In this document: piece after piece, positions 944 through 17,530 of the stretch
Position numbering within the stretch: the stretch's first letter is position 1
Layout: each line of letters starts with the position of its first letter
Source of the DNA: an uncultured Thermoproteaceae archaeon
GTDB taxonomy: Archaea > Thermoproteota > Thermoprotei > Thermoproteales > Thermocladiaceae
Reading direction: 5' to 3'
Length of the DNA: 32,000 bases
NCBI GenBank assembly: GCA_964575955.1
Contig: CAZNTG010000006.1
Location: 458,107 to 490,106 of the forward strand
The notes under the pieces: model-generated
What the model was told of the DNA's origin: nothing
Databases searched by the model: none
What the model saw: the letters and a program-made list of their open reading frames with translations, nothing else
Position numbers and translations under genes: made by a program

Positions 944-980
944 TAGACTAGTAGTACACTTCTAGAATAAGTCAGTTTCG

Positions 981-1032
981 ATGATGAAGGCAGGGCTTAG
1001 CAGATATGTGAAGAAGCCTTGACGGGGACTGA
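981..1032 (+). ncRNA. Candidate C/D box sRNA (2'-O-methylation guide)
   Basis: C box ATGATGA (981-987), 13-nt spacer, D' CAGA (1001-1004), 3-nt loop, C' GTGAAGA (1008-1014), 14-nt spacer, D box CTGA (1029-1032). It is locally GC-rich in an AT-rich intergenic gap. Spacers are slightly longer than the canonical 12 nt. Confidence 0.45.
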
Positions 1033-1036
1033 TATT

Positions 1037-1160: not shown

Positions 1161-1188
1161 TTTCTTGTAGTCGTTATTTTGTGTGGGG

Positions 1189-1197
1189 TTTTTAATT
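1189..1197 (-). promoter_or_regulatory. Putative TATA element for the tRNA-Thr gene
   Basis: AATTAAAAA on the minus strand, 29-37 nt upstream of the mature tRNA 5' end. Confidence 0.35.
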
Positions 1198-1286
1198 CTT
1201 TCTTCAGTTACTAAAAATACTAACTCTTTGTAGAGTCTTGGTGTCTCTATTGCCTTGAGGATACACTATTTAGAGGTACTTAGAAT

Positions 1287-2250
1287 ATGAGTAGTTCGAG
1301 ATCTATGGCAGGTGAGAAAGGTGTCTATGGATTTATTGGTATCTCACTAGCTATGATGTCTATAGTGATAATACTTGCTGCTTTAGGAACATATTTTTAA
1401 GCTACCAGCAACATTTTGGTCTATAAGTCTATTCTTTCTGACGTTTGCTATTGGAATACTAGCACCTGTTGGTGGTGTAATTTTCGTACCAGTAGTATCA
1501 GCATTCTACCCATTTAGCATAACTTTCGTTAGAGGTGCTGGTCTAGTTATGGCTCAGGTTAATGCACTAGTGTCAGTACCAAAATTTTTACGTGTAGGAC
1601 TTGCATCTCTACGCATAGGTCTATTAGCAGCAGTTGTTGCTGCTGGTGCAGCAATTGCAGGAGCTAAGATGGGTATATGGGTTGTTAAGGCTTTTCCAAA
1701 AGGAAAATACTACATATATGTAGTACTCGGTGCATTACTATTCTTCATATTTGCAATAATGGTAGCATCTAAAAGAGTAGAATTTCCAGAGGCTAAAGAA
1801 ATGAATTCACTAGCAGAGATGTTTAATTTAACAGGAGCATACTACGAACCCGCACTTGGAAGAGTTATAGAGTATAAAGTTACTAGAGTACCTCTAGCAC
1901 TTGCAGCATTTGCAGGTGTTGGATTTATAGCTGGAATGTTTGGACTAGGAGCAGGTTGGGCAAATGTTCCAGTACTAAACCTGATTATGGGAGCTCCAAT
2001 AAAAGTATCAACATCGACAAGCATGTTAATAATAGCATTAACAACACCAGCAGCATGTGTATATCTTGTAGATTGTGCAATACTACCACTAATAATGATA
2101 CCTGCAGTAGTAGGAATGTTCTTTGGATCAAGACTTGGAGCATGGTTAAGTACTATACGTATTCAACATAGTACCACCATTCGTACCAATGAACGTAATG
2201 GAGTCACTATGGCATCTAAAACCATCAGTATTCTGGCAGAAAATTTCTGA
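1287..2250 (+). pseudogene. TauE/SafE (DUF81) family anion permease, apparently frame-disrupted
   Basis: Duplicated TauE motifs GILAPVGGVIFVP and GMFGLGAGWANVPVL, with multiple TM helices. The first motif lies upstream of the first ATG (1549), in a frame open only from 1387 and lacking ATG/GTG/TTG. An ATG ORF (1287-1400, one TM helix) ends at TAA right after a T5 run and is offset by +1. The C-terminal 33 aa of frame 1 are hydrophilic, while the expected last TM helix (VLYVFNIVPPFVPMNVM) is in the next frame. Confidence 0.5.
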
Positions 2251-2473
2251 AAAACTACACCTAACACTTAAATTAGGTAAGTATTGGTGGATATTTGATA
2301 ATATTAATCACTCTGACATGATAGCTATGGTTGGTGTATTGATATTCATAATTGGCGTAATTGCAACTATAGTTGGAATATGTGCAGCATATGCAAAACA
2401 TGATAGAAAGACGCTGATAATATCGATAATATTGTTAATAATAACACTATACGCAGTATTGGAGTATATATAA
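2189..2473 (+). CDS. Small membrane protein (2 TM helices), or out-of-frame C-terminal remnant of the upstream permease
   Basis: 94-aa ORF overlapping the permease 3' end. The C-terminal half (MIAMVGVLIFIIGVIATIVGICAAY...LIISIILLIITLYAV) is two clear TM helices. No recognisable family. Confidence 0.3.
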   Translation: MNVMESLWHLKPSVFWQKISEKLHLTLKLGKYWWIFDNINHSDMIAMVGVLIFIIGVIATIVGICAAYAKHDRKTLIISIILLIITLYAVLEYI

Positions 2474-2628
2474 GTTCTACAAAGTTCATAATTAATCAAA
2501 TACAGCCTTTCTACAATCTTAAATCTATACTAGACTTTTCATTAACATTCTCTCAGTTCTAACCATTTAAACAGTTCTTTAAATGGATAGTACTCTTTTT
2601 AAGCTTAGCACATTCTTGAAGTCTTGAG

Positions 2629-4095
2629 ATGAGTAATACAAATGATGTAGAATTTTCTCGTAGAGATTTTCTTAAGCTTGCCATTTCAACAGGCGCTGCA
2701 ATTGGTATAGCTGTTACATGTTTTGGAGCTGGTATCGGTACAGGATATGCAATATCTCAAGCATTGTCTAAAGCTGTTAAAGTATCTCCAAAAGTTAAGA
2801 CTGTAATAAAGTATCAAGTACCTAAGATTAGAGTAGGCTTCATATATATTGGACCTATAGGTGACTATGGTTGGACATTTGCACATGAGAGAGGTAGAGA
2901 GTACGTGTCTAGATATCTAGGACCAATATTGAAGGAGTGGAAAGGTAAGCCACAGCCAATATATATTGAGAAGGTATTTCCTGAATCTAGAGTTATTGAA
3001 GCTATCAAAACACTTGTAGAAGAGGAAGGATGTAATCTCATATTTACAACAAGTTTTGGATATATGAGATATACTTGGGAGATGGCTAAAAAGTATCCTG
3101 ATGTACTTTTTGGACATTGTTCAGGATATTTAACACCAGAAACACCATTAAACGTTGTTGAATATTTCATAGATGAATATCCAGCATACTACCTATGTGG
3201 TATTGTTGGTGGAGCAATGACTAAAACTAACAAGGTAGGTTATGTACCTGCATTCTTAACACCAGAAATTATTAGACATATAAATGCATTTACGATAGGT
3301 GTTAAAGAAGGTGCAGCACTTGTAGGTAAAGATCCTGATAGTGTTGAAGTGATAGTAGCACCACCATTAGGAAGATGGTACTATCCTGAGAAGGCTAGAG
3401 AAGAAGCAGAAGCATTAATAGCAGAGGGATGTGACGTACTTGCATATACAGAAGATTCTCCAACAGTTCTAGAAGTTGCAGAAAGCTATCAGAAGAAGGG
3501 TATGAAGATTTGGAGCTTTAGTCATTATAGCGATATGCATGTATATGGTCCACATGCATGTCTAACAGGACAATTAGTAAATTGGGGACCAATGTATGAA
3601 GAACTTGTAATTAGAGCTTACATGGTATACCTAATGCATAAATATTGTGAAACACCACTTGAAGAAGCTTTAAAAATATGGACACAATGGCCACCTGAAA
3701 GACCAAGAGATTACTGGTGGACAATGCATAGATCACACTATGTACCACTAACATTAAAAGATGCTTTCGTACCTGTTAAAGAAACTCCATATGGAACAAT
3801 ATATGAACCTATAAATGTTGTAGATATATGGTTAATAAATCCTGCAGTTCCTGAAAATGTGAAGAACTACGTTCTCTATAAGAGAAAGCTAATCATGGAG
3901 AATATAGTAGACCCATTTGGACCACCAATATCAATAATTAAGAATGGAAAGATTGAGAAGATAGTTATGAAAGAGATTATAGATGTAGAAAGTAAGGTGA
4001 GGGTTGAACCTGGAATGAGGTTAAGTAAAGATGAGCTATATAGCATGAAGTGGTTTGTTAAAGGTGTTGTACTTCCAAAAGGTGTATCAGTTTAA
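2629..4095 (+). CDS. BMP-family (PnrA/Med-like) ABC transporter substrate-binding protein with Tat-type signal/anchor
   Basis: N-terminal SRRDFLKLA twin-arginine motif plus a hydrophobic stretch. Has BMP-like blocks (IRVGFIYIGPIGDYGWT, LIFTTSFGY, VGYVPAF) and is followed by the cognate ATPase and two permeases. At 488 aa it is roughly 100 aa longer at the C-terminus than typical BMP proteins. Confidence 0.8.
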   Translation: MSNTNDVEFSRRDFLKLAISTGAAIGIAVTCFGAGIGTGYAISQALSKAVKVSPKVKTVIKYQVPKIRVGFIYIGPIGDYGWTFAHERGREYVSRYLGPILKEWKGKPQPIYIEKVFPESRVIEAIKTLVEEEGCNLIFTTSFGYMRYTWEMAKKYPDVLFGHCSGYLTPETPLNVVEYFIDEYPAYYLCGIVGGAMTKTNKVGYVPAFLTPEIIRHINAFTIGVKEGAALVGKDPDSVEVIVAPPLGRWYYPEKAREEAEALIAEGCDVLAYTEDSPTVLEVAESYQKKGMKIWSFSHYSDMHVYGPHACLTGQLVNWGPMYEELVIRAYMVYLMHKYCETPLEEALKIWTQWPPERPRDYWWTMHRSHYVPLTLKDAFVPVKETPYGTIYEPINVVDIWLINPAVPENVKNYVLYKRKLIMENIVDPFGPPISIIKNGKIEKIVMKEIIDVESKVRVEPGMRLSKDELYSMKWFVKGVVLPKGVSV

Positions 4096-4101
4096 GAAAA
4101 T

Positions 4102-5595
4102 ATGAAGAATGCATTAAAACTTGTAGGTATAGTAAAGAAATTTCCACACGTAACAGCACTAGATAATGTAGATTTTGAACTCAACTATGGAGAGATTCAT
4201 GCACTACTAGGTGAAAATGGTGCAGGAAAAACGACATTAGTAAACATAATATCTGGAGTATACATACCCGATGAAGGAGAGATATATCTAGAGGGTAGAA
4301 GAGTAATTATAAGATCTCCAAAAGATGCCCAAAAACTTGGAATTGTATCAGTATCACAACATCCAGTACTTATAGACTCATTAACAGTTTTAGAAAATAT
4401 AGCATTAGCACTTGGTAAAAATCCTCATGATAAAAAGTTTCAAGAAAATATTAGGAGGGTAGTGAATGAGTTTAATATTAAGATTAATCTAGATGCAAAG
4501 ATATGGCAACTATCAGCTACTGAGAAAGCTAGAGTAGAGATAGTTAAGGCACTTATGAAAAATGGAAAAATATACATATTCGATGAACCGACATCTCTAG
4601 TAGGATTGAAAGATAGAGACAACATCATGAATATAATGAAAAAATTGAGAGATGAAGGAAAGGCAGTACTATTCATAACACATAAAGTTGATGAAGTATT
4701 TGAAATAGCTGATAGAGTTACAGTACTTAGAAAAGGTAAGAAAGTATTAACTAAAGATGTCAAAGAAATTACTAAAGATGAATTGATAATTGCAATGTTT
4801 GGAAGATATAGTGAAGATTTAGAATATTCAAAATGTAGAAGATATAGTAATGGACTTACACCAATATTAAAGGTAGATAATATCAAAGTTAAAGATGATC
4901 TTGGAAAGATAGCTGTAGATGATGTAAGTCTAGAAGTTTATCAAGGAGAGATAGTAGGTATTGCAGGTCCTGTAGGTTCTGGACAGAGAGAACTTCTAGA
5001 AGCAATTGCAGGTATTAGAAAGGTAGTGTCAGGTAAAGTATACATGTTTAATATAGATGTCACAAATAGAGATTCAAAATTTATTAGAAAACTCGGAGTA
5101 GCATATATACCAGATGATAGACTTAGTATAGGTTCTGCATTATCACTCACAGTTCGTGATAATTTAATTATGAGAGATTTAGACATATATACAAATAGAA
5201 TTGGCATATATGTTAAGAGTAGGTTCAGAAATCTTGAACATATCTTAAGCAAGGTTGGACTAAGTAAAGAACTTCTTGAAGTACCTTGTGCAGACTTGTC
5301 AGGTGGTATGATTCAGAGAGTTATACTCGCTAGAGAACTTCTAAATAGAGATATTAGACTTATAATAGCATCATACCCAACTAGCGGTCTTGATCATGAA
5401 ACTACAAAGCTTATTCATGACATGTTTATGAAGTTTAGAGATAGAGGATGTGGAGTAATTATCGCATCTGAAGATATTGAAGAACTATTGAGATTATGTG
5501 ATAGAATCTTAGTAATGATTAATGGTAAGATAGTTTATGAATCTAGAGTAGATAGTTTAGACATTGAAAAACTTAGAGAATTATTATCAACATAG
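4102..5595 (+). CDS. ABC transporter ATP-binding protein, duplicated ATPase domains (sugar/nucleoside uptake type)
   Basis: Walker A GENGAGKTT and a second P-loop GPVGSGQRE. Signatures LSATEKARV and LSGGMIQRV, Walker B IYIFDEPTS and LIIASYPTSGLD. 497 aa, typical of the two-domain ATPases partnered with BMP-family binding proteins. Confidence 0.9.
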   Translation: MKNALKLVGIVKKFPHVTALDNVDFELNYGEIHALLGENGAGKTTLVNIISGVYIPDEGEIYLEGRRVIIRSPKDAQKLGIVSVSQHPVLIDSLTVLENIALALGKNPHDKKFQENIRRVVNEFNIKINLDAKIWQLSATEKARVEIVKALMKNGKIYIFDEPTSLVGLKDRDNIMNIMKKLRDEGKAVLFITHKVDEVFEIADRVTVLRKGKKVLTKDVKEITKDELIIAMFGRYSEDLEYSKCRRYSNGLTPILKVDNIKVKDDLGKIAVDDVSLEVYQGEIVGIAGPVGSGQRELLEAIAGIRKVVSGKVYMFNIDVTNRDSKFIRKLGVAYIPDDRLSIGSALSLTVRDNLIMRDLDIYTNRIGIYVKSRFRNLEHILSKVGLSKELLEVPCADLSGGMIQRVILARELLNRDIRLIIASYPTSGLDHETTKLIHDMFMKFRDRGCGVIIASEDIEELLRLCDRILVMINGKIVYESRVDSLDIEKLRELLST

Positions 5596-5603
5596 TTGAG
5601 AAG

Positions 5604-6695
5604 ATGAAAATTTTAAACTATAAAATTGATATTGTAGTTAGAAGACGTGAAAAAATTTCAAAATCTAGAAAAGCACTATATACAGCATTGTCACTATTAA
5701 TAGCATTCCTACTTGCTGCACCGATAACATACTTCCTAGGTGTTAATCCAATACTATTCTATAAGTATCTAATAATTGGATCATTCTCACCATATTCAAT
5801 ATCTTCAACTATTGTAAATTTAATACCTGTAGCATTATGTTGTTTAAGTGCGATATTCTCATTTAGAGCAGGATTGTGGAATATCGGTCAAGATGGTCAA
5901 TATGTTCTAGGTGCAATAATGCTACTTTGGATATCTTCTCTCATACCAAATGTTCCAAAACCAATAGCTTACACACTTGTAGTTATTATTGGTGGAATTG
6001 CTGGAGGATTGTGGTGTCTTATTTGTGGTGTTCTTAGAGCATTTACGGAAGCTAATGAGGCTGTTACAACATTGATGATGTTGTACATAGCTACAAACAT
6101 ACTGAACTACCTATGCTATGGTCCTTGGAGAAGTAAGGTTGGATTTCCTGAGACATTTCCACTACCTCAAAATTATCAACTTCCCAATATTGGACCTATA
6201 ACATCTGCAGTAATAATATTAGCAATATTGACTATTATTGCATGGTTCATACTTGAGAAGACTAGACTAGGATTAGAGATGTCTCTACTTGCTGAAGGTA
6301 CTAGAGTTGGAGATTATGCAGGTATTAGATATAGAAGATTGATATGTACTGTAATGTTCATAAGTGGAATGTATGCAGGTATTGCAGGTTCACTATACCT
6401 ATCATACTATGCTAAGTTTCTACAACCAGGATTTGTAGCATTTTATGGATTTTCTGGAATCATAGCTGCATGGCTTTGCGAACTTAGAGTTGAATATTCA
6501 ATACTTGCATCACTACTCCTAGCAGCAATATATGCAAGTAGCTATACTATGCAGGCAGCATTAAACATACCTTCATACATGGTTGATACACTTGAAGGAC
6601 TTCTACTTACATGTATATTATTGACATACTTCTTTACTAGGTATAGTGTTAAAATAAGACTTATTAAAGTTGATAGGGTTGAGAAGAAGAAATGA
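5604..6695 (+). CDS. ABC transporter permease (BMP/nucleoside-type system)
   Basis: 363-aa polytopic membrane protein directly after the ATPase, with an ATGA stop/start overlap with the next permease. Confidence 0.8.
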   Translation: MKILNYKIDIVVRRREKISKSRKALYTALSLLIAFLLAAPITYFLGVNPILFYKYLIIGSFSPYSISSTIVNLIPVALCCLSAIFSFRAGLWNIGQDGQYVLGAIMLLWISSLIPNVPKPIAYTLVVIIGGIAGGLWCLICGVLRAFTEANEAVTTLMMLYIATNILNYLCYGPWRSKVGFPETFPLPQNYQLPNIGPITSAVIILAILTIIAWFILEKTRLGLEMSLLAEGTRVGDYAGIRYRRLICTVMFISGMYAGIAGSLYLSYYAKFLQPGFVAFYGFSGIIAAWLCELRVEYSILASLLLAAIYASSYTMQAALNIPSYMVDTLEGLLLTCILLTYFFTRYSVKIRLIKVDRVEKKK

Positions 6696-7606
6696 ATATT
6701 TCAATAATAGTTTCAGATATATTAGAGAGATCTACAGTATATCTACTAGCAACTGAAGGATCGCTAATAGTTCAGAGAGCTGGACTTCTAAATCTTGGAA
6801 TTGAAGGATTTTTCGCAATTGCCGCACTCGTAGCATATGCAGTTGCTGTATATACTGGAAATGTAATCTATGCATTTATAGCAGCAACAATATCAGCAAT
6901 AGCATTTAACATGATATTTACAGTATTGACGGTACATCTCAGATTAAATCACATAGTTTCAGGTTTAGCAGTGTCAATGTTAGGTATAGGTATTAGCTAT
7001 ACTCTAGGTATTGTCCTAGTTGGTGTTCCACTACCATCAACAATAACAATACCAACAATAAGTATATGTGGCGTATGTATAGATCCGCTAATCTTAACAT
7101 CAATAATCGTAGCAGTATTGCTATGGTACATGTTGTATAGAACTAGGATTGGGTATGAAATTAGGATTGTAGGTGAAAATCCACATGCAGCAGATCTACT
7201 TGGAATATCTATAAATAAGGTTAGGTATGTAGCAACATTAATTGAAGGCTTTTTAGTAGGTCTTGGAGCTGCATACTACTCACTAGAGGTAATACCTGTA
7301 TGGTCAACAGGTGTTACACTTGGAAAGGGTTGGCTAGCTATTGCATTAGCAATGTTTAGTCTATGGCATCCAATATATGCCATTGTTGGAGCATACTTAA
7401 TAGCATGTTCAGACACACTAGCAACAATCCTTCCAAGACTTGGAATACCTGTATCACCATACCTACTCTACACATTACCATACGCATTAACTATTGGAGT
7501 ATTAGCAGTAGTATCGTATATCGAGATTAGAAAGAAGAAGCTTGGAATACCTACAGCACTTGCTAAAGTATATTCAAGAGAGGAGAAGGCTAGAAAATAT
7601 ACCTAA
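6692..7606 (+). CDS. ABC transporter permease (second subunit)
   Basis: 304-aa polytopic membrane protein, translationally coupled to the preceding permease (4-nt overlap). Confidence 0.8.
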   Translation: MNISIIVSDILERSTVYLLATEGSLIVQRAGLLNLGIEGFFAIAALVAYAVAVYTGNVIYAFIAATISAIAFNMIFTVLTVHLRLNHIVSGLAVSMLGIGISYTLGIVLVGVPLPSTITIPTISICGVCIDPLILTSIIVAVLLWYMLYRTRIGYEIRIVGENPHAADLLGISINKVRYVATLIEGFLVGLGAAYYSLEVIPVWSTGVTLGKGWLAIALAMFSLWHPIYAIVGAYLIACSDTLATILPRLGIPVSPYLLYTLPYALTIGVLAVVSYIEIRKKKLGIPTALAKVYSREEKARKYT

Positions 7607-7609
7607 ATT

Positions 7610-8164
7610 TTACTCAACCTTAATATCGACACCCTTCCTCTTCTTCTCCCTCTTCTCAAGCTCTATTGTTAAGACACCATTTCTATATGTTGCCTTTGCT
7701 TTTGTTGGATCTACAGGTGCTGGTAGGTCAATCTCCTTATAGTATTTCCTATCCTCTCCCTTAGCTGATACTGTAAGCTTTGTACCATCTTCACTAACAG
7801 TTACCTTAATATCCTCCTTATTTACTCCAGGCATATCCATTATCACCTTAATCTTATCATCTTCCTCAATAACATCTGTTAGAGGTTCAATATCTTCCTG
7901 AACTTCTATTACAGGCTTACCAGCTGTTTCAATTCCTCTAGGTCTTATATTTCCAAATTCCCTAATCCTAGGCTTACCATCAGGACCTACAGTAATTTCA
8001 AAACCATAATAATACACTCTAGGCTTACCCATAGCAAAGAACTTACCAGGTTCTCTACTCAACCTTTCAAGTCTTTCAAACTCTGCAAGCATCTCCTTCT
8101 CCATCTCTTCAAAGAACTTCATCATACGTTTCATCCATCTCTCAAAGTCCTCCATGAAGCTCAT
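7610..8164 (-). CDS. hsp20: Small heat-shock protein, Hsp20/alpha-crystallin family
   Basis: C-terminal alpha-crystallin domain (DVIEEDDKIKVIMDMPGVNKEDIKVTVSEDGTKLTVSAKGEDRKYYKEIDLPAPVDPTKAKATYRNGVLTIELEK), preceded by a charged helical N-terminal region. Confidence 0.9.
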   Translation of the reverse strand: MSFMEDFERWMKRMMKFFEEMEKEMLAEFERLERLSREPGKFFAMGKPRVYYYGFEITVGPDGKPRIREFGNIRPRGIETAGKPVIEVQEDIEPLTDVIEEDDKIKVIMDMPGVNKEDIKVTVSEDGTKLTVSAKGEDRKYYKEIDLPAPVDPTKAKATYRNGVLTIELEKREKKRKGVDIKVE

Positions 8165-8277
8165 ACAACTAGATAACTTCTTAAAGAGTTAATAAACCAT
8201 TGGTCATAGACTACCAATATTCAATACATCAACACAGTAGACTTGAAGTCAAATTATTGATGTTACAGCACTAGAAA

Positions 8278-9078
8278 CTATATTTCAAAAACCCTCTCTA
8301 ACTCACTACACAGTCTCGACTTATCTATACACATCTTAAGTATCTCACGTATTCCTCTGAATTTATCCATTAATGATCCACCTAGTAGAAATAGAGAACC
8401 TTTAACTGCTAATGTATCAGTAACACCTTTACTTTTAAAATTATTAATTAGTTGCAATATCTTTGATAGATCCTCTGATGTACTATATTTTTCACACTCT
8501 TTAATTAATCTTAGTATTAATTCCTCAGCTGTGTTGTAATAAGAGAGTATATTTATACGAAGTGTAAAGTTACTAAATATGATGTCAATATATTGTTTTC
8601 GAATTGGGATTATATCGAACTTGCACTCTTTTACTGTTAGCACTAGCCTCAGAGATTTCCTACTACATAAATCTTCAATTTTATGTTGTAGATTATCTAG
8701 ACAATCATAATCGATTAAAACCGAAATTTGCCGTACAGACTCTACAGAGAATTTCTGAAGTTCTTTAATAACTTCAGATCTTCCTAAAGGAATATATTGA
8801 ATAACTATTGGCTTTGTGCCGTGATTGATCGTTGAATAAATTATGTGTTTGAGGAAATCTATAACACCTCCACACCCTCCACATGGTATAATCCACACAT
8901 CGTAATCATGCTTGTTGGAAATCTTCCCTCTACATATATAATCAACAATTCTTCCACCTATGTAATGCCCACCTAACACTTCAACGTTTTTTAATATACC
9001 ACATAAGTGTTCCATCATTAATCTCAACAATAAGCAGTCTCGCAATCCTTCAGTGATGATAAACATTACCTTAACCAT
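8278..9078 (-). CDS. TOPRIM-like putative nuclease (DUF4435/RloB/DUF3226-like), partner of the upstream ATPase
   Basis: 266 aa. N-terminal beta-strand plus Glu motif FIITEGLRD (Glu codon 9049-9051), Gly-rich IIPCGGCGGV, acidic LIDYDCLD (DxD, 8704-8712), helical C-terminus. Starts 15 nt after the ATPase stop on the same strand. The family assignment is by motif pattern only. Confidence 0.4.
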   Translation of the reverse strand: MVKVMFIITEGLRDCLLLRLMMEHLCGILKNVEVLGGHYIGGRIVDYICRGKISNKHDYDVWIIPCGGCGGVIDFLKHIIYSTINHGTKPIVIQYIPLGRSEVIKELQKFSVESVRQISVLIDYDCLDNLQHKIEDLCSRKSLRLVLTVKECKFDIIPIRKQYIDIIFSNFTLRINILSYYNTAEELILRLIKECEKYSTSEDLSKILQLINNFKSKGVTDTLAVKGSLFLLGGSLMDKFRGIREILKMCIDKSRLCSELERVFEI

Positions 9079-9093
9079 AAGTCTGTGGCAGAG

Positions 9094-10383
9094 CTACACT
9101 ATGAGTCTTAGGTCATAACCAAGCTTTTCAATATTTAACTCGACTTCTTCACCTGTGTAGTTAGCGATTGAGGTCATTCCATTGCTAAGATCACGCTTTA
9201 GTGCTATGAGGTTCAAGTTATCTATACCCTCCTCCTTCAGCTTAAGTACATTGATGAATTCTCTAATTAATTCTAAGCTATGTGTAGAAAGTATGACTTG
9301 TACGCCTTTTTTCGCAAATTCTATAGTCATTTCACAGAATTTTCTAAGTAAACCTGGGTGTAACGTATTCTCAGGTTCTTCAATGAGGATTATAGAGGGT
9401 CTAAGTTTCTCTGCTACGGTATATGCCAGTAGTGCTGTGATAAAACTCTTGATGCCATATCCACATAGCTCTATATCGAGTGGTCTATCTACACCTCTAT
9501 ACTTAACAAGACATCTTACACGTCTTATAGAGTCTCCTGGTACAAAATCTAAATCTTCAATATAATCTATATATGTGTTTATATACTCTTTTAATTTACT
9601 ACTTAAGCCTAGTTCTATAATTTTACGTAGAAGATTTTTAAATAACACTCTCCCTCTTTCAATTACATCTATGAGAATGCAGTTCAATAACTGTATTTCT
9701 TCTTTTCTTCTCATTCCTACAGCGAAGGTAGCAATTCCATACGTGTGTGAAATTGAATAAGACATTCCGTAGAGATCTCTATTCACTAACGTACATAAAT
9801 AAAGTCTATCATATCTATATCTTCCACCAACAATTTCAAGTCTTCTCTCTACCTCTTCCTCTACCTCTCTTGGAGTAGGTAGAACCTCCTCAGGACGTAT
9901 AAGTTGCAATACTTCAAAGCCCAATGTGCTAATTAGATTAAAGATCTTGCTTACTCCGGATAACTTTCTTTTAAATATAGCTGCCTCTTTCTTCAAATGA
10001 TCAAGATATTTTCTAACATCTCTCTCCTCTATACCTAGCTCTTTACACTTTTTCAATAAAGCTAATCTCGATTTCGATAACAATGTACTTACAGTGTAAG
10101 TATGCTCATTAAGTTTAATCTCTAAATCTATCTCTGATAAGTTTGAATCTCTAAATAGCAAATTTGTGATAGAGCTATACTTACCGGCTAGAATACACAG
10201 TGTACATTGATCAGCTAGATCACGTAATCCTCGGAGACTAGAAGTTGATAGATATATAGCTTCAAGAATAGAACTCTTACCTGCATCATTTCTTCCAACA
10301 ATTATAGATATTTTAGAGAAGGTTACTTCTGCAACCTCTCTTATACCTTTAAAATTTTTTATAGTAAGTTTTCTAACATACAT
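9094..10383 (-). CDS. ABC-type (SMC/RecF/OLD-like, AAA_15/AAA_21) ATPase
   Basis: N-terminus MYVRKLTIKNFKGI...IIVGRNDAGKSS (Walker A, 10270-10296). Long charged/helical insertion, signature-like CGYGIKSF, Walker B IILIEEPE (9370-9393), then LHP and STHS H-loop. Confidence 0.8.
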   Translation of the reverse strand: MYVRKLTIKNFKGIREVAEVTFSKISIIVGRNDAGKSSILEAIYLSTSSLRGLRDLADQCTLCILAGKYSSITNLLFRDSNLSEIDLEIKLNEHTYTVSTLLSKSRLALLKKCKELGIEERDVRKYLDHLKKEAAIFKRKLSGVSKIFNLISTLGFEVLQLIRPEEVLPTPREVEEEVERRLEIVGGRYRYDRLYLCTLVNRDLYGMSYSISHTYGIATFAVGMRRKEEIQLLNCILIDVIERGRVLFKNLLRKIIELGLSSKLKEYINTYIDYIEDLDFVPGDSIRRVRCLVKYRGVDRPLDIELCGYGIKSFITALLAYTVAEKLRPSIILIEEPENTLHPGLLRKFCEMTIEFAKKGVQVILSTHSLELIREFINVLKLKEEGIDNLNLIALKRDLSNGMTSIANYTGEEVELNIEKLGYDLRLIV

Positions 10384-10406
10384 ATTGTATAGTATAGCTT
10401 CGCTCC

Positions 10407-10415
10407 TATATATAT
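10407..10415 (-). promoter_or_regulatory. TATA box for the ATPase/TOPRIM operon
   Basis: TATATATAT lies 24-32 nt upstream of the ATG at 10383, consistent with a leaderless or short-leader archaeal transcript. Confidence 0.5.
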
Positions 10416-10446
10416 CTGTGGGATTATCATGTTCTTGAATGTGTGG

Positions 10447-11142
10447 TTAGATCAGTTTTGTCTGTTTTAGAGCTTTAATTATTCTATCTGGGTAGTCTGA
10501 TGCTACCATGTCAACTCCAAACTCTAACACTCTCTGTAGATCATGTTCATCATTTATGACCCATGTACCAACTTTCATACCTAAATTATGAGCTTCTTCT
10601 ACAAGCTCTTTATCAAGCATATCATATCTTGGCAATATTATGTCTGGTTTTTCATGTTTAAACATATCTTCAAGACTTATAGGTCTACATACGAAAATTG
10701 CACCAAACATATATCCTCTATCTTTTACATTTTTAATAATTTTATGGTGAAATGATACAAATATAATTCTATTCTTCTCTATACCATATCTAGATACTAT
10801 ATCTAATACCTTATCTACAGTGTCTGGCTCCTTTATTTCAATTATAATTTTAACATTCTTATTCTTTAAAACTTCTAATGCTTCTTCTAATGTTGGAATC
10901 CTCTCTCCCCTTATAGAGAATTTTCTAATAAATTCAAATGTTCTATCTCTAAGTCTTCCATGAATTTTTAATAGTCTGTCTAGTTTTTCATCATGGAATA
11001 GTACGATTACTCCATCTTTAGTCATTCTAACATCAAATTCTACAGCATCAACACCCATCTCAATAGCCTTCTTAATTGATACTAGCGTGTTTTCAGGATA
11101 GTAACCACAGGCACCTCTATGACCTATGACTAGAGGTCTCAT
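10447..11142 (-). CDS. Glycerophosphodiester phosphodiesterase (GDPD family)
   Basis: MRPLVIGHRGACGYYPENTLVS...GVDAVEFDVRMTKDGVIVLFHDEKLDR is the canonical GDPD N-terminal motif set. The ORF track begins at a TTG (11169). The ATG at 11142 sits about 26-36 nt downstream of an AT-rich TATA-like element and is preferred. Confidence 0.88.
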   Translation of the reverse strand: MRPLVIGHRGACGYYPENTLVSIKKAIEMGVDAVEFDVRMTKDGVIVLFHDEKLDRLLKIHGRLRDRTFEFIRKFSIRGERIPTLEEALEVLKNKNVKIIIEIKEPDTVDKVLDIVSRYGIEKNRIIFVSFHHKIIKNVKDRGYMFGAIFVCRPISLEDMFKHEKPDIILPRYDMLDKELVEEAHNLGMKVGTWVINDEHDLQRVLEFGVDMVASDYPDRIIKALKQTKLI

Positions 11143-11176
11143 AGTACTATTTAAACAACAATTATTCAATATATTA

Positions 11177-11440
11177 ATGTCTATGCCTGTAACTATAAGA
11201 ATTGAAGGTCCTGAATATTACATATACACATTGAGGTCTTGGCTTAAAGAAGTTGAAGATTTTATTAAAGAGATGACCTGTATAGATGAGTTAAACGTTA
11301 TAGAGTTAGTAGGAGATCAAGTTAGGATATATGTAGATAGTAAGCTAGTATTTGAAGGACTTCCAGATGCTGAGTGGGCTTTAGCTGAAATATTGATACA
11401 TGAGTTGAAGAGTATGGGTTATGAATGTGAGAGTGAATGA
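11177..11440 (+). CDS. Hypothetical small acidic protein
   Basis: Open frame with an ATG at 11177 (the track's 11126 start would overlap the GDPD gene). No recognisable motifs. Confidence 0.4.
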   Translation: MSMPVTIRIEGPEYYIYTLRSWLKEVEDFIKEMTCIDELNVIELVGDQVRIYVDSKLVFEGLPDAEWALAEILIHELKSMGYECESE

Positions 11441-11489
11441 TCAGCTCGTGGAATCTTCCTCAACATTCGGCGTGAATACGTTTCATCAT
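11441..11489 (-). ncRNA. C/D box sRNA (2'-O-methylation guide), canonical architecture
   Basis: Minus strand reads ATGATGA (C) - 12 nt AACGTATTCACG - CCGA (D') - ATG - TTGAGGA (C') - 12 nt AGATTCCACGAG - CTGA (D). Both spacers are exactly 12 nt with a 3-nt loop. The D' guide is complementary to GUGAAUACGU, which I recall as a universally conserved 16S rRNA segment. Confidence 0.68.
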
Positions 11490-11519
11490 AACTATCTAGT
11501 AAGACATATATAGTTAGTC

Positions 11520-11526
11520 TTATATA
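11520..11526 (+). promoter_or_regulatory. TATA box for rps6e
   Basis: TTATATA ends 26 nt upstream of the ATG at 11552. Confidence 0.5.
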
Positions 11527-11551
11527 CCCTCACACTCACCACATAATAAGC

Positions 11552-12013
11552 ATGCCAACATTTAAACTAGTACTTGCAGATCCAATGTCTGGAAAATCTA
11601 GACAATTTGAAATTAAGGATCCAGTAGCACAGAGATTTATAGGTTTAAAAATTGGTGATATTGTTGAAGCATCAATACTTAAAGGTGTTATAGATCTACC
11701 TCCTGGATTTAAAATTAAGATTACAGGAGGAAGTGGTTATGAAGGTGCACCAATGCTACCATACATTGAAGGTCCCGTAAAGAAGTATGTACTACTAAGT
11801 GGACCTCCAGGTTTTCATCCAAGAAAGAGAGGTGAAAGAAGGAGAAAGCTTGTTAGAGGTAATACGATAAATGAGCAGATAGTGCAGATAAATGCTGTAT
11901 TAATATATCCACCAAACTGGAAAGAAGGACCAATATTTCCACTTGGTGAAAAAGAGCTTCAGAAAGTCTTAGAGAAATTGAAGGGAGGTTCCGAGAAGGG
12001 TGAAGAGCAGTAA
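11552..12013 (+). CDS. rps6e: 30S ribosomal protein S6e
   Basis: MPTFKLVLADPMSGKSRQFEIKD...KIKITGGSGYEGAPM...RRRKLVRGN matches the S6e family pattern. Confidence 0.9.
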   Translation: MPTFKLVLADPMSGKSRQFEIKDPVAQRFIGLKIGDIVEASILKGVIDLPPGFKIKITGGSGYEGAPMLPYIEGPVKKYVLLSGPPGFHPRKRGERRRKLVRGNTINEQIVQINAVLIYPPNWKEGPIFPLGEKELQKVLEKLKGGSEKGEEQ

Positions 12014-12053
12014 AAATCACACTTATTAAATCTAGAATAGTATACTTAGTCTA

Positions 12054-13301
12054 GTGGTATATACAGTATTGAAACCTGAAGTATGTTATAGATGTAAGAC
12101 ATTTAAAAAGCTCTGTGGCTTACCTAGCTGTCCAATAAAGGAGAGATTGAAGGTTGTTATAAAGACTTTCACAAAAATATCTACAAACAGCGTAGTACTA
12201 GGAAGTACACCTCCAAGTGGTGTTGTTGGAGAATTTAACTATCCGAAAGTAAACATATACACAGGAATATCACCAGATAAGGATAGAGATGTAAAATTTT
12301 TAGAAGATCCTCAAAGATGGTGGTTAAACAACCTTTCTCTAGATGATGTTGTTAAAATTAGATCAAGTATGATATCAATATTAGATAAAAATGTAGACGT
12401 ACATGATGTAGATAAATTGTTAAGTAGAGAGATATCTCTAATTCAAATATCTTCAAAACCTGTTGATTGTGATGTATTTATAGAGAAGATACTTGATAAG
12501 AACATGATATTTGATCTAAAACTACTACCTCTAAGTGTTAGAGTTTTAGGAAATATTAAAATATCTTCAAATCCAAAGATTGAGAGAAGTTTAGAGAAAG
12601 TTATATATGATACAGACCTTAAAGCAAGAGATGCTGTTATTAAATTGTATAGAGATGGTATTGATATATACATTATACAGAAAGCTTTTAGCTTTGGACT
12701 ACTTGGAACTAGAAGATTTAGAAAGCTAGTACCTACAAGATGGGCTATAACTGCAGTTGATAGAATAATATCTCAATACCTTAGAAATACTATTACAAAA
12801 TTCGAATTTTTAGATAAGTTTAAATTTTATCAAATAACATATATGAATAATAGATTTACAGTAATAATGATACCAGGATCATTAAAAATTTCATGGCTAG
12901 AATTCTGGTATCCAAGATTAGGAATTGATAGTGGTGTTAAGAAAAGTCCAACTCTATCAGTACAGATTGAGGAAGATCTAAAAGGCAATGTTGAGACTAT
13001 GGATGGAGGTTTTGAAGCTGCTAGAATGGGAATATTAGAGACACTATATAGAAGAAGAGTACAGTGTAGAGTAATAATAGTTAGAGAAATACTACCTGAA
13101 TACTATATTGGTATTGGAAATTGGCATATTAGAGAAGATATGAGAAACATAGTTAACATAAAACCAATATTATCAACATATAATATTGATGAACTTATCA
13201 AAACTATAAATGAAAAACTTCCAAAAGAGATAGCTAGCGTTGTAGTGAGAAATGTTAGAAAATTATATTCTCAAAAATCTATACTAGAAACATTATGGTA
13301 A
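12054..13301 (+). CDS. Nre-family archaeal DNA repair protein (GTG start)
   Basis: N-terminal Cys cluster CYRCKTFKKLCGLPSCP is typical of the Nre N-terminal domain. Length is about 415 aa, and the C-terminus QKSILETLW resembles a PCNA-interacting (PIP-like) tail. Confidence 0.65.
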   Translation: MVYTVLKPEVCYRCKTFKKLCGLPSCPIKERLKVVIKTFTKISTNSVVLGSTPPSGVVGEFNYPKVNIYTGISPDKDRDVKFLEDPQRWWLNNLSLDDVVKIRSSMISILDKNVDVHDVDKLLSREISLIQISSKPVDCDVFIEKILDKNMIFDLKLLPLSVRVLGNIKISSNPKIERSLEKVIYDTDLKARDAVIKLYRDGIDIYIIQKAFSFGLLGTRRFRKLVPTRWAITAVDRIISQYLRNTITKFEFLDKFKFYQITYMNNRFTVIMIPGSLKISWLEFWYPRLGIDSGVKKSPTLSVQIEEDLKGNVETMDGGFEAARMGILETLYRRRVQCRVIIVREILPEYYIGIGNWHIREDMRNIVNIKPILSTYNIDELIKTINEKLPKEIASVVVRNVRKLYSQKSILETLW

Positions 13302-14251
13302 AGATACTACCTGCATTTGAATGTGAAAATAGGATAGTTGATATATGTGTTGAAGAGTTGAATAATGATAAGCTTATAGTACTACCAACAGAGACAGTAT
13401 ATGGAATTACTATAAAAATAAACTCAAAAAACATAGAATCCCTATACAGGATAAAGGGTAGACACGAAAGATTTACAATACATATATCACATATAGACGA
13501 TCTTAAGAATTTTGGAATAATAATTAAAGATAAGTATGTAGACATTATCGAAAATATAACACCAAATCCAATAACTTTAATAGTAGAAGATATTAACAAC
13601 AACAAGATTGGTATTAGAGTTCCTGACATAGAGTTAACCAGAGATATACTAAGCAGAGTAGGACCATGCTATATGCCTAGTGCAAATCTAAAAGATAATC
13701 CAAGTCCAACAAATATATATCACGTAATTGAAGATCTTTCAGAATATGTAGATCTGATAGTTGACTACGGTGAAGCTAGGTATGGTATTGATTCAACAGT
13801 TATAGATTTAACAAAAACTCCACATAAGGTATTGAGAATTGGAGCATTTACACCAGACAAATTGAGAGAGTATTTCAATAATATTGAAATTGATGAAAGA
13901 ATTTTAAAAATGAAACCTCTAGATAAGAAATATTTGAAGAATATTGAAGTATACGGATTTAAGAATATTGATAAAGTCTTTAGAATTTTAGATAAGTATG
14001 AGAGATGTATAATAGTATGTACATTAGAGACATATTACAATAATGTTGAGAAGTTTAGAGGTAATGTAGATTTCTACATCTTAGGTTCAATAGAGAATCC
14101 ATTAACACTTTATAGAAATGTATATCCATCTTTCAGATACATTATGAAGAAAAGTCCTGATAAAGTATTTCTAGAATTACTACCTGTTGAGGATGTTTTC
14201 CTACCTGTAATTGAGAAGTTTTTAAATGCTGTTAATTATATTCTTGAGTAG
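13295..14251 (+). CDS. sua5: L-threonylcarbamoyladenylate synthase (Sua5/YwlC; tRNA t6A pathway)
   Basis: YrdC-domain motifs LPTETVYGI, RIKGR, IGIRVPD, MPSANL, IDSTVIDL, plus a Sua5-type C-terminal domain. Overlaps the Nre stop by 7 nt. Confidence 0.82.
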   Translation: MVKILPAFECENRIVDICVEELNNDKLIVLPTETVYGITIKINSKNIESLYRIKGRHERFTIHISHIDDLKNFGIIIKDKYVDIIENITPNPITLIVEDINNNKIGIRVPDIELTRDILSRVGPCYMPSANLKDNPSPTNIYHVIEDLSEYVDLIVDYGEARYGIDSTVIDLTKTPHKVLRIGAFTPDKLREYFNNIEIDERILKMKPLDKKYLKNIEVYGFKNIDKVFRILDKYERCIIVCTLETYYNNVEKFRGNVDFYILGSIENPLTLYRNVYPSFRYIMKKSPDKVFLELLPVEDVFLPVIEKFLNAVNYILE

Positions 14252-14968
14252 TTACGTTCTTGGTGGTCCTTGTAATATTCTATTTAATTGTGCTAGAAAA
14301 TCATTTACAACTATCTCAAGTATTTGTTTACCCTTCTCCTTATCTAAATCTCTAGTTAATCTTCCAATTATACCAATATCTGAGATTTCCTTAGTTCTAT
14401 ATAATTTTAATGATCCTTCTCTAACAATATCAACTATTCTTTCAAATTTTACAAGTTCTTCATTTATTGTCATTATCATGTATGTTTCTACAAGTCCTGC
14501 ATGTTCTACATATACATCTCCAAGTAAATCTCTCAATTTTCTCTTAACTCTCTCATTTAGTACATAGTAGTGATATGTTTTGATACTATTTCTATAGTTT
14601 AACGTTCTTGCTACAAGATCTAGAATTTCACAATTACCTCCATGTCCATTAACTAGTACTACTCCTCTAGGTGAACATGTCTCTATTATTGACTCTACAA
14701 TATCTTCAATATATCTCATAAATGTTCTTGGAAGTACGTATATAGTTCCTGGAAAGTCTTTATGCTCCATAGAGCAGGTGTAGTATATTGGTGGTAGTAC
14801 TAGTACTGTATCTCCAAGTACTCTCTCAGCTATTGAACATAGATATTCTGCAATTATAGTATCACAAGTATATGGTAGATGAGGTCCATGTTGTTCAACA
14901 CTTCCAATAGGTATCAATACTAGTCTATTTGGAGTGAAGTCTAGAAGTGTCATATTTTCAAGTCTCAC
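14252..14968 (-). CDS. Creatininase-family amidohydrolase (possibly ArfB-like)
   Basis: LIPIGSVEQHGPHLPYTCDTIIAE and VNGHGGN are hallmark creatininase-family motifs. Confidence 0.82.
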   Translation of the reverse strand: MRLENMTLLDFTPNRLVLIPIGSVEQHGPHLPYTCDTIIAEYLCSIAERVLGDTVLVLPPIYYTCSMEHKDFPGTIYVLPRTFMRYIEDIVESIIETCSPRGVVLVNGHGGNCEILDLVARTLNYRNSIKTYHYYVLNERVKRKLRDLLGDVYVEHAGLVETYMIMTINEELVKFERIVDIVREGSLKLYRTKEISDIGIIGRLTRDLDKEKGKQILEIVVNDFLAQLNRILQGPPRT

Positions 14969-15093
14969 TATGATGCACCTACTATGAGGATTTTTAAGAG
15001 ATATTTAGAGGAGATTTAAATATGTCACTTGAATACTTAATCTAGAGTACTTTTCAAGTAGCATACTTTTAAATCATCGTAGCATCATAGAAC

Positions 15094-15525
15094 ATGATTC
15101 GAATAGCAATAGCAACAGACGATGGAAACATAGTATCCAACAGGATGTTTACAGTAGCTAAGATGTTTAAGATATATGACATGGATGAGGAGAAGGGAAC
15201 ATTAACATTTGTTGAAGATAGAAAGAATGCATTAGCAACATCTCAAGAAGTTTCAAATATGCCTGAAGAAGAGTATTGTAAACTTCTTCATGAGAAAGTT
15301 CTAAACGATATTAATGTAATAATTGGAACAGTATGCACAAGATTAACATACTACTACTTCCTATCTAACAATGTTCAAGTTCTCTTTGTTGAGAGAGATA
15401 CACCAATATCAATGGTTGAGGAATATCTTAGAAGAGTTGCAGAAGAGATAAGTAAGGAATTGAAAGCACAGAGTGGAGGTTATAGTGAGGAAGAGTTTGA
15501 GAGTGAGGAAGAGGAAGGATATTAA
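15094..15525 (+). CDS. NifB/NifX-like (dinitrogenase FeMo-cofactor-binding fold) small protein with acidic tail
   Basis: [15 protein letters not shown]...[11 protein letters not shown]...VEDRKN and ...DINVIIGT...VQVLFVE follow the layout of the NifX/NifB C-terminal domain family. The usual HFG motif is absent, and the C-terminal [12 protein letters not shown] tail is acidic. Confidence 0.45.
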
Positions 15526-16523
15526 TCATAACCAAACTCTCTTCTAAGTTCTATAGAAGCTTTAACAATATTTCTCAATTTTTCTAAAGCAATTTCTCTA
15601 GGAAGTCTCTTCAAACCACAGTCAGGATCTAGATAAATCTTTTCAGGACCTACAATATCGAGTTTCAATAATCTATATACAGCATCTTTAATCTCTTCAA
15701 CAGTCTCTACACGTAGTGTATGTACATCAACAACACCAAATCCAAGCTCCTTATTATATCCATACTCTTTCAAATATGGTAATAGTCTAAAGTTACTATT
15801 CTTAAATTCAAAATCGAATTGATCTACAGGATAGTCTAGAAGGTATGGTATTATCTTTTCAATTTTTCCAAAACATATATGGACTATCTTCTTACAGTCT
15901 AATCCATGTAGCATCTCTTTAAGAACATCTTTCAAAATCTCTACTTCCTCCTTCACAGGTCTTGTAGATAGTGCTGGTTCATCAACTTGAACAAATTTTG
16001 CACCTCTCTTAACAGCTTCCTCAATCTCTACTCTGAGAGCTTTAGCAATATCAAACATTAATTCTACTCTATCTCTATAGTATAGATTAAAACTCCAATC
16101 AACAATTGTGTATGGTCCTGTAAGTATGAATTTTACAGGTCTTCCATCACTGACACTTTTTGCAAATTCCCAATCTTCAATAATCATTTTACAACAATAC
16201 TCAACCTTATCTACAACTATAGGCTTTCTGAAATAGACATTGTCAAATATTCTAACCCAATCACCTACCTTATACCCTTTCATTCTCTCTACAAAGAATA
16301 CAACCATATCTTCTCTTGTCTGTTCACCATCACTAATTATGTCGATACCTGCAGTGATGTAGTCTTGAACTACCTTCCTAATAGCTTCTCTACAAATATT
16401 TCTAAACTCCTCCTCACCAATAAGACCTCTCTTTCTCTTCTCTATAGCTTCTTGAGCTTCTGGAAACTTTGGATAACTACCAACTACAGTTGTTATGAAT
16501 GCTTTTGGTAATCTATAAGTCAT
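15522..16523 (-). CDS. metE: Cobalamin-independent methionine synthase, catalytic (MetE C-terminal-like) subunit
   Basis: [35 protein letters not shown] and DPDCGLK (Zn ligands) are MetE catalytic-domain motifs. Confidence 0.85.
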
Positions 16524-17494: not shown

Positions 17495-17530
17495 ACTCTA
17501 GACCATGTTAAGAATATTCTAAAGTATTTT

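Follow-up and report, generated by a model that had tools for sequence, protein, structure and literature searches.

A sporadic two-gene ATPase cassette of AbiL/PARIS-like organisation, with an orphan candidate effector, in a thermophilic archaeon

Introduction

The locus described here raises the question of whether an archaeal thermophile carries a two-gene module of the type in which an ABC ATPase acts as sensor and a small nuclease as effector, and of what kind of protein its second gene encodes. Bacterial examples of this pairing are AbiL (AbiLi/AbiLii), PARIS (AriA/AriB), PDC-M38 and split OLD; to our knowledge, split immune systems that pair an ABC ATPase with a TOPRIM protein, such as PARIS and AbiL, have been characterised in bacteria only. 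Among archaea only a single OLD protein has been studied to date, namely Cran1, which proved to be a cell-cycle factor.

The window, that is the whole stretch of 32,000 nucleotides that was analysed, comes from an uncultured Thermoproteaceae archaeon. Its relatives are Thermoproteota MAGs, and the composition of the proteome (IVYWREL 0.487; (E+K)/(Q+H) 4.95) is in keeping with a (hyper)thermophile.

Our verdict is that the cassette is an accessory module of the AbiL/PARIS-like type, rare and sporadic, whose candidate effector is an orphan; it is a divergent example of a known system type and looks like an anti-virus defence module.

Organisation of the cassette

The cassette consists of two ORFs on the minus strand: one of 429 aa for the ATPase (9094-10383) and, after a spacer of 15 nt between the stop of the first and the start of the second (9079-9093), one of 266 aa for its partner (8278-9078). 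The lengths, the common strand, the spacing and all the motifs quoted in the original prediction were found again when the ORFs were read. The two genes are, as judged from the sequence, co-transcriptionally arranged, and the tight coupling is kept in the only other known copies. The upstream intergenic region (10384-10446, minus strand) contains the TATA-like element ATATATATA at 10407-10415, where a TATA box had been predicted, 24-32 nt 5′ of the ATPase ATG; it is a putative promoter element of the cassette. At the other end, a 3′ tail of extra DNA (8229-8277, minus strand) runs from the partner stop until the sequence becomes homologous again to the empty sites described below; there begins the promoter-proximal stretch of hsp20 that is common to those sites (GACCAATGGTTTATTAA..., 8165-8228, minus strand), which forms the right edge of the indel.

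Outside the module, and on the same strand, lie GDPD (10447-11169; PF03009, 7.3e-41) and hsp20 (7610-8164; PF00011, 8.9e-14), the latter being the anchor of the empty-site comparison; both are unrelated housekeeping genes, as had been proposed. An ABC transporter and S6e are the other neighbours, also housekeeping, and neither a defence island nor a mobile element surrounds the cassette. Its GC content is in line with that of the surrounding genome, with no anomaly, and the four ATPase-bearing contigs of the window's organism all have it intact and identical.

The ATPase and its relatives

The ATPase motifs can be read directly: Walker A GRNDAGKSS, signature CGYGIKSF, Walker B IILIEEPE and H-loop STHS, with a helical insertion of about 275 aa; the Walker B/D-loop region is IILIEEPENTLHP and the C-terminal tail ends in GYDLRLIV. 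Three Pfam families match above the gathering threshold, namely AAA_15 (1.8e-29, 104 bits, cut-off 32.1), AAA_21 (6e-20, 73 bits, cut-off 27), labelled by Pfam as a putative AbiEii-type toxin domain, and SMC_N (1.9e-10), so that the predicted AAA_15/AAA_21 architecture holds. The best defence models in PADLOC are AriA, AbiLi, PDC-M38A, NsnB and Old. AriA (PDLC02979) reaches 1.9e-29 over two stretches, the best of which covers residues 1-67, AbiLi 3e-29 (100.7 bits, with its best stretch at 242-419) and PDC-M38A 1.2e-26, about level with the other two. The protein belongs to the AAA_15/AAA_21 ABC ATPases, in the OLD/AriA/AbiLi clade.

The stand-alone relatives of the ATPase each have a gene of about 175-255 aa immediately downstream. 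One of them, from Campylobacter (P0009), is a true AbiLi (1.3e-73, 246 bits, full length), and its neighbour is matched by DUF3226 (4.3e-20) as well as by OLD-like_TOPRIM_1, AbiLii and PDC-M38B. The neighbours of two archaeal relatives, P0005 and P0006, match DUF3226 below threshold (2.4e-5 and 3.6e-3, respectively).

An insertion present or absent at a precise site

A metagenome scan anchored on hsp20 revealed two related contigs, L016 and L017, in which GDPD lies directly beside hsp20, with about 90 nt between them (87 and 93 nt, respectively, from the GDPD end); hsp20 is 81-82% identical and GDPD about 70% identical to the genes of the window. Since the two genes adjoin in both contigs, the cassette of about 2.2 kb is an indel. 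Its right edge is supported by a local alignment of the right-hand intergenic DNA with the L016 spacer, which begins at about 8228 with a score of 40, reached by 2 of 2000 shuffles; the upstream intergenic region (10384-10446) shows no similarity to the L016 and L017 spacers above that of shuffles. The cassette was at none of the 37 hsp20-anchored loci. Synteny anchored on S6e in GTDB genomes gave a synteny break only and no empty site. Neither a tRNA gene nor flanking repeats accompany the insertion, and it has no target-site duplication. A possible TTCAAG direct repeat at the two junctions does not exceed chance.

The inserted accessory module that the original prediction had supposed is thus supported by the empty sites and by the copies decaying in a different neighbourhood; the cassette is sporadic, and one exact position in the chromosome either has it or lacks it.

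Probably decaying copies in a second lineage

The only other copies of the cassette, L001 and L002, belong to another lineage of Thermoproteota and lie in a different gene neighbourhood. Their ATPases are 49% and 41% identical, respectively, to that of the window, and the pairing of ATPase and partner is conserved. Comparison of L001 with L002 gave ω=0.10 for the ATPase and ω=0.21 for the partner; both genes have evolved under purifying selection in this lineage. Frameshifts, independent of one another, and a nonsense codon now interrupt the genes of L001 and L002, with lesions confined to the cassette, and both ATPase and partner are inactivated there. Assembly errors were considered as the source of these lesions: one does fall in an A-run, and among the others are a nonsense substitution and indels outside homopolymers. 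Because of the nature of these other lesions, and because all are confined to the cassette, a real, recent and independent inactivation in L001 and L002 is likelier, not proven.

The partner, an orphan candidate nuclease

The partner contains the motifs FIITEGLRD (E10), IIPCGGCGG and LIDYDCLD (D123 and D125). The public gene call (P0001) is a 245-aa protein starting at M22, in which E10 would be lost; the longer ORF of 266 aa is supported by the homologues in L001 and L002, which begin MVTLILTEGTRD. These homologues were found by tblastn at 30-31% identity, and the three sequences are mutually 30-33% identical (three-sequence alignment A1). E10 (ITEGxRD), PCGG65-68 and D123-x-D125-C-x-D128 are invariant in all three, so the E and DxD residues picked out beforehand are conserved, at the three known loci, two of whose three sequences are pseudogenes. 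Conservation within the family is strongest in a C-terminal block, the invariant KGSLFLxGxSL (226-236).

The divergence expected of this protein was borne out everywhere that was searched: profile searches of Pfam and PADLOC, which recognised the ATPase, returned no match for the partner, nor did NCBIfam or PHROGs, searches at E≤10 in Pfam, at E≤1 in PADLOC and with the N-terminal domain alone included. The models for TOPRIM, DUF4435, DUF3226, RloB, DUF4276, AriB and AbiLii likewise fail at E≤10. Exhaustive phmmer (HMMER) over 1.84 billion representatives recovered the partner itself and one fragment (P0016) only, and a word-indexed homology search nothing beyond itself and one fragment. Profiles of the family gave no match in the PDB and no relatives in JGI metagenome contigs or IMG/VR, and tblastn against phage records none either; no viral or plasmid homologue was found.

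Two AF2 models of the partner were built, both of low confidence (pLDDT 56 and 52), the second, less confident one with a four-sequence MSA. Their secondary structure has an alternating beta/alpha domain in the N-terminal 150-180 aa or so and a helical domain in the C-terminal 80 aa or so; in both of these low-confidence models E10 and D123 lie at or just past strand ends and G67-G68 after a strand. In Foldseek searches, the sole significant PDB match of the first model is PH0156 (2p62; E 4.8e-5, TM 0.46/0.49), a structure that is also the top HHpred match (>97%) published for a DUF4435 AriB (PMC11381338). The match is lost with the second model, for which TOP3B comes no higher than rank 40 (E 0.076). 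No AriB, OLD or GajA chain is among the matches of either model, and a search of BFVD returned noise only. The structural check thus produced PH0156, from one model of two, and none of the nucleases with which similarity had been anticipated.

Comparison of profiles is similarly divided. With hhalign, the N-terminal profile of the partner scored 25.5 against a six-sequence, multi-family TOPRIM alignment, at a probability of only 21%; column shuffles gave 11.0±1.9, with a maximum of 20.1, and 0 of 300 reached the real score. Against individual families the probabilities were 1% (Campylobacter AbiLii), 7.8% (an archaeal DUF3226-like pair) and 0.3% (fused OLD-type TOPRIM), and the comparisons align the N-terminal E motif only, over 10-44 columns. 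An HMM of three DUF3226-like proteins, whose template alignment is poor, did not score the window partner significantly against shuffles, and a homology search from the archaeal DUF3226-like partners for a bridging profile returned only the two query proteins.

On these grounds the TOPRIM fold of the partner is only tentatively supported. From the motifs and the models we infer that the protein may be a highly divergent TOPRIM-like metal-dependent nuclease. Of the original assignment to TOPRIM, the conserved E...DxD arrangement stood, no model for DUF4435, DUF3226 or RloB recognised the protein, and the PH0156 match is given by one AF2 model and not by the other.

It is possible, and in our opinion rather unlikely, that the locus is a conflict or defence pair built on an AAA_15/21-type ATPase whose partner is some other effector or adaptor, the E...DxD residues being coincidental or otherwise used. 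That all searches for TOPRIM-type families, by sequence and by profile, failed speaks for this, as do the second model with neither a TOPRIM nor a PH0156 match and the fact that the best conserved block is KGSLFLxGxSL and not the putative catalytic motifs; moreover, AAA_15/21 ATPases pair with many unrelated effectors (PMC11464382). A TOPRIM-like partner, in turn, is favoured by the invariant E, GG and DxD at predicted strand ends and in TOPRIM order, by an N-terminal motif match better than 300 of 300 shuffles, by the PH0156 match of the first model and by the DUF3226-type TOPRIM proteins that occupy the same position beside the closest stand-alone ATPase relatives. With about the same low likelihood, the partner could be the founder of an effector family that has so far gone unrecognised and is peculiar to thermophilic Thermoproteota, either a very divergent TOPRIM subfamily or a non-TOPRIM fold.

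Proposed function and alternative roles

On balance, the DNA of about 2.2 kb from ~8229 to ~10446 is probably a horizontally acquired, self-contained accessory module combining an ABC ATPase sensor with a small nuclease effector. By analogy with PARIS, an oligomer of the ATPase would keep the effector inactive and detect a viral trigger; the nuclease would then be released or activated in an ATP-dependent way and cut nucleic acid (tRNA in PARIS), and this cleavage would arrest the infected cell. In the partner, E10 would end strand 1, the PCGG glycine turn would follow strand 2 and D123-x-D125 would end strand 3; the C-terminal helical domain would come next, as in AriB and PH0156.

A selfish module of the toxin-antitoxin type, bringing no net benefit to the host, in which post-segregational toxicity of the partner is neutralised by the ATPase, appears distinctly improbable. 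Its attraction is that PARIS is formally a type II TA system, with AriB as toxin and AriA as antitoxin (PMC13064643), that Pfam gives AAA_21 the toxin label mentioned above, and that the distribution is sporadic with frequent loss. Nevertheless, this explanation is not truly distinct from abortive-infection defence, because the mechanisms overlap; furthermore, nothing ties the cassette to a plasmid, virus or integrated element, and both genes, not the toxin alone, are inactivated in L001 and L002.

A cellular role outside defence, for instance in DNA repair, in chromatin processing or in controlling the cell cycle, is very improbable: Cran1, an ATPase-nickase of the Sulfolobales, is a precedent for an archaeal OLD-family protein that is an essential cell-cycle factor (PMC12796447), and the housekeeping neighbours and ordinary GC content would suit such a role, but Cran1 is fused, vertically inherited and essential throughout its order, whereas the window pair is split, missing at the site in the closest available relatives, found in just two lineages although billions of proteins were searched, and pseudogenised in one of them.

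The accessory sensor-effector module is, therefore, the reading that we retain. The analysis turned up neither a pair universally syntenic in the core genome nor a partner shown to be devoid of a TOPRIM fold or of conserved E/DxD residues.

The locus, with its site seen both filled and empty and with copies elsewhere that decayed independently, offers a clean natural case of such a pair as a dispensable insert in an archaeal thermophile. Its effector is missed by every current defence-finder model, which illustrates the extent to which profile-based catalogues overlook archaeal immune diversity, and the partner is a thermostable candidate, small and open to testing. The advance, however, is incremental, as the architecture is familiar, many variants of AAA_15/21 plus effector are catalogued and the family is tiny. 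If the partner did found a new effector family, this would define a new archaeal immune system of ATPase plus effector, which would have a trigger and a target of its own and could serve as a thermostable nuclease, programmable or abortive.

Comparison with known systems

As to the kinship to PARIS and AbiL that had been predicted, the ATPase gives partial matches to AriA and AbiLi, and on the partner DUF4435, DUF3226, AriB and AbiLii all fail. Like AbiL and its relative PDC-M38, a PADLOC candidate, the cassette has two co-oriented genes, the ATPase leading and the small partner right after it; the nearest stand-alone ATPase relatives beyond the orthologues, Campylobacter AbiL included, pair with DUF3226-like proteins, and the window partner has the same E...G...DxD order as AbiLii. 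However, the partner is unmatched by AbiLii, PDC-M38B or DUF3226 (PF11536) at any threshold, is about 70-90 aa longer and has an extra beta-hairpin (~29-54), an extra beta/alpha unit and the C-terminal helical domain; the ATPase is only a partial AbiLi match (101 bits versus 246 for the true AbiLi), and the host is an archaeal thermophile.

With PARIS (OLD class 4), the cassette shares a split sensor and effector in identical gene order, and AriA is the top PADLOC match of its ATPase (1.9e-29). The partner is comparable in size to AriB (266 versus ~290 aa), its predicted layout is also that of an N-terminal Toprim-like and a C-terminal helical domain, and its sole significant structural match, PH0156/2P62, is that of the DUF4435 AriB in HHpred. 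Yet the AriA match lies mainly at the conserved ATPase termini, and the partner has no DUF4435 (PF14491) or AriB match and no AriB structure in Foldseek. PARIS is reported as restricted to bacteria and often found on phage satellites (PMC12796447, PMC11464382); such a mobile-element context is not seen at the window cassette.

PH0156, an uncharacterised protein of Pyrococcus horikoshii, shares with the partner an origin in an archaeal hyperthermophile and a similar length (241 versus 266 aa), but identity is only 14% and the match is gone with the second model. In Cran1 of the Sulfolobales (clade U11), ATPase and TOPRIM are fused in one polypeptide; the protein is inherited vertically, is essential and has a link to the cell cycle (PMC12796447). 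It resembles the window pair as an OLD-family ABC ATPase of Thermoproteota tied to a TOPRIM nuclease; the window pair, in contrast, is split, sporadic, polymorphic and dispensable, and is pseudogenised in the other lineage.

Gene content and layout of the cassette

The cassette lies on the minus strand of the window and is composed of an ABC ATPase gene (9094-10383, 429 aa) and a partner gene (8278-9078, 266 aa), co-oriented and 15 nt apart, with GDPD (PF03009) upstream and hsp20 (PF00011) downstream. The two-gene feature is real and was rightly described in the original prediction, both ORFs and every quoted motif being found in the window. A ATATATATA element is located 24-32 nt 5′ of the ATPase ATG, and the GC content of the cassette (0.32-0.35) matches that of its surroundings. 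The public partner call, P0001, is 245 aa long and starts at M22; it drops codons 1-21 (window 9016-9078), and hence the conserved I(I/L)TEGxRD motif with the putative catalytic Glu. Since the partner homologues in two other contigs open with MVTLILTEGTRD, the longer ORF containing E10 is, on sequence grounds, the correct one; this beginning, MVTLILTEG, points to a partner start at 9078. An antisense ORF of 127 aa inside the ATPase gene (9182-9565, plus strand) does not argue for an additional gene: its tblastn matches in L001 and L002, two loci of a second Thermoproteota lineage, are expected because the sense gene is conserved.

Profile searches agreed with the predicted AAA_15/AAA_21 architecture of the ATPase, which matched AAA_15 (1.8e-29), AAA_21 (6e-20) and SMC_N above the Pfam gathering scores; its best PADLOC models were AriA (1.9e-29), AbiLi (3e-29), PDC-M38A (1.2e-26), NsnB and Old, while NCBIfam gave sub-threshold matches only (MAD3, retron-Eco8-effector, RecF/Rad50). 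This pattern places the ATPase in the OLD/AriA/AbiLi clade of ABC ATPases, as judged by profile similarity, not assignable to one named system. The stand-alone ATPases of the clade (the window ATPase, P0005-P0009 and P0013) have in common a C-terminal (G/E)xDLR tail, LGYDLRLIV in the window (9094-9120) and GGDLRGP, IEEDLR, GVELRK or NLDLRG in the others, which may serve in docking of the partner or in oligomerisation.

Accessory status and genomic context

The cassette was absent from all 37 hsp20-anchored loci retrieved from metagenome contigs in an empty-site search. The hsp20-anchored metagenome contigs L016 and L017 carry hsp20 and GDPD genes 81-82% and ~70% identical to the window counterparts, in the order orf104-GDPD-hsp20, the spacer from GDPD to hsp20 being 87 and 93 nt long, with no cassette in it. 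Because the two genes nearly adjoin there, the pair amounts to an indel of ~2.2 kb when compared with close relatives, by gain here or loss there; the accessory behaviour predicted for the hsp20-GDPD junction is thus seen in these empty sites. Homology to the empty-site spacer covers the ~55 nt of the right-hand spacer that lie nearest hsp20 in the window (score reached by 2 of 2000 shuffles), so that the extra DNA ends on this side near 8228. The spacer on the left gave no alignment to it, and the junctions showed neither a target-site duplication nor an inverted repeat or a tRNA gene.

From S6e rightwards gene order is kept in the nearest GTDB Thermoproteota MAGs, and it breaks immediately left of S6e (window 1-11500 versus 11500-22800, compared with loci L005 and L006), so that the GDPD-cassette-hsp20-ABC transporter block lies at a rearrangement boundary. 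A small ORF (11126-11440, plus strand; listed with 104 aa, publicly called with 85 aa), divergent from GDPD and overlapping its listed 5′ end, is probably a real gene, as it is conserved beside GDPD in L016 and L017 (52-60% identity). All related contigs are Thermoproteota MAGs, and the composition of the 27 window ORFs (IVYWREL 0.487; (E+K)/(Q+H) 4.95) fits a (hyper)thermophile.

Decaying copies in a second lineage

The closest ATPase relatives, P0003 (49% identity; L001, Crenarchaeota MAG GCA_013153275.1) and P0004 (41%; L002), both have a wyosine radical-SAM gene on one side and, on the other, a 112-aa gene with an F420 ligase gene after it. The setting has nothing in common with that of the window pair, which favours mobility of the pair. 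In both loci tblastn revealed a partner homologue (30-31% identity) directly 3′ of the ATPase, and both cassette genes are broken, by different lesions: in L001 a +1 in an A-run of the ATPase and −2, −2 and −1 in the partner; in L002 a +1 in the ATPase, and a GGA→TGA nonsense change and a +1 in the partner. Flanking genes are intact. Comparison of the two loci gives a dN/dS of 0.10 in the ATPase (307 codons, dS 0.47) and 0.21 in the partner (227 codons, dS 0.52), with 0.085-0.09 in the flanking genes. The low ratios, together with the differing lesions and intact flanks, indicate real genes that were long constrained and appear to have been recently and independently inactivated.

Nucleotide identity between L001 5324-9175 and L002 93-3971 is a mosaic (radical-SAM 3′ end 100%, ATPase codons 1-97 99.3%, remaining ATPase 88.6%, partner 83-86%, 112-aa gene 90%, F420 ligase 74%), implying a probable recombination breakpoint inside the ATPase gene, near the L001 frameshift.

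Nature of the partner protein

Family searches did not place the partner: Pfam, PADLOC, NCBIfam and PHROGs gave no match, also when the cut-off was relaxed to E≤10 or the N-terminal domain was searched by itself, a word-indexed search of 5.8 billion clusters returned only the partner itself, and its family profile had zero matches in PDB, JGI metagenome contigs, IMG/VR and phage records. Exhaustive phmmer on 1.84 billion representatives added one 141-aa fragment, P0016. The three partner sequences (30-33% identity) share invariant E10, G67, G68, D123, D125 and D128, including the three acidic residues (E10, D123, D125) whose conservation the original prediction had named as a check. Their strongest-conserved block, A(V/I)KGSLFL(L/F)G(G/S)SL (aa 224-236, window 8371-8409), is located in the C-terminal helical domain, outside the putative catalytic motifs.

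Two AF2 models, both weak (pLDDT 56 and 52), agree on the succession of secondary structure: strand 1 (~2-9) ending at E10, helix 12-25, a beta-hairpin (~29-54), strand 58-66 ending at two glycines, helix 69-84, strand 115-123 ending at DxD, helix 124-140, then more strands and, at the C-terminus, a helical domain. The match of the first model to Pyrococcus horikoshii PH0156 (PDB 2p62) was lost with the second model, whose matches were noise, and no AriB, OLD or GajA structure was among the matches. In hhalign, the N-terminal profile scored 25.5 against a six-sequence multi-family TOPRIM alignment, a value reached by 0 of 300 column shuffles (11.0±1.9). Over all the hhalign comparisons of the partner the probabilities were 0.3-21%, with alignments confined to the first motif or to the strand that ends at DxD, and one HMM-versus-shuffle test was negative. 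The C-terminus of P0010, an obvious fused TOPRIM of the same ATPase clade, is sub-threshold in Pfam; non-detection is therefore expected for divergent members, yet it is no evidence of membership. The invariant E/GG/DxD residues, the secondary structure on which the two models agree, the small proteins that follow stand-alone ATPase relatives and the hhalign shuffle test speak for the proposed TOPRIM assignment; the low model confidence, the lost PH0156 match, the low hhalign probabilities and the negative HMM test speak against it. We lean towards a TOPRIM-like partner.

Relation to known systems

Each stand-alone ATPase relative is followed by a small protein gene at the same position. The Campylobacter relative is a bona fide AbiL pair (ATPase AbiLi 1.3e-73), its partner matching DUF3226 (4.3e-20), OLD-like_TOPRIM_1, AbiLii and PDC-M38B. 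The partners of two Thermoproteales relatives match DUF3226 below threshold (2.4e-5 and 3.6e-3) and carry the motifs ILCEGKRDC, IIENGK and IIDLD. The more distant, bacterial-type P0007 and P0008 precede 229-255-aa proteins (L011 5181-5870; 4996-5763 in the P0008 locus) devoid of Pfam or PADLOC matches, which suggests that further undetected partner families may exist for this clade.

Of the original reading, the part with good support is the accessory module of an ATPase plus an effector; that the effector is a TOPRIM protein and that the module acts in defence are plausible but unproven. By analogy with PARIS (PMC11464382) and AbiL (PMC13064643), an ATPase oligomer would sequester the effector and sense a viral trigger, and ATP-dependent release would activate the effector nuclease, leading to growth arrest; the module would work like AbiL, PARIS or PDC-M38. 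Its partner, however, matches neither the effectors of AbiL/PDC-M38 (no DUF3226, AbiLii or PDC-M38B match) nor that of PARIS (no DUF4435/AriB match). In contrast to Cran1, a fused protein of vertical inheritance that is essential and linked to the cell cycle (PMC12796447), the window pair is split; the pairing is kept, co-oriented, across two lineages, and its behaviour is accessory, polymorphic and loss-prone. Split class 4 systems were found only in bacteria (PMC12796447); since DUF3226-type pairs occur in Thermoproteales, split pairs in archaea already have precedents in sequence, albeit uncharacterised ones.
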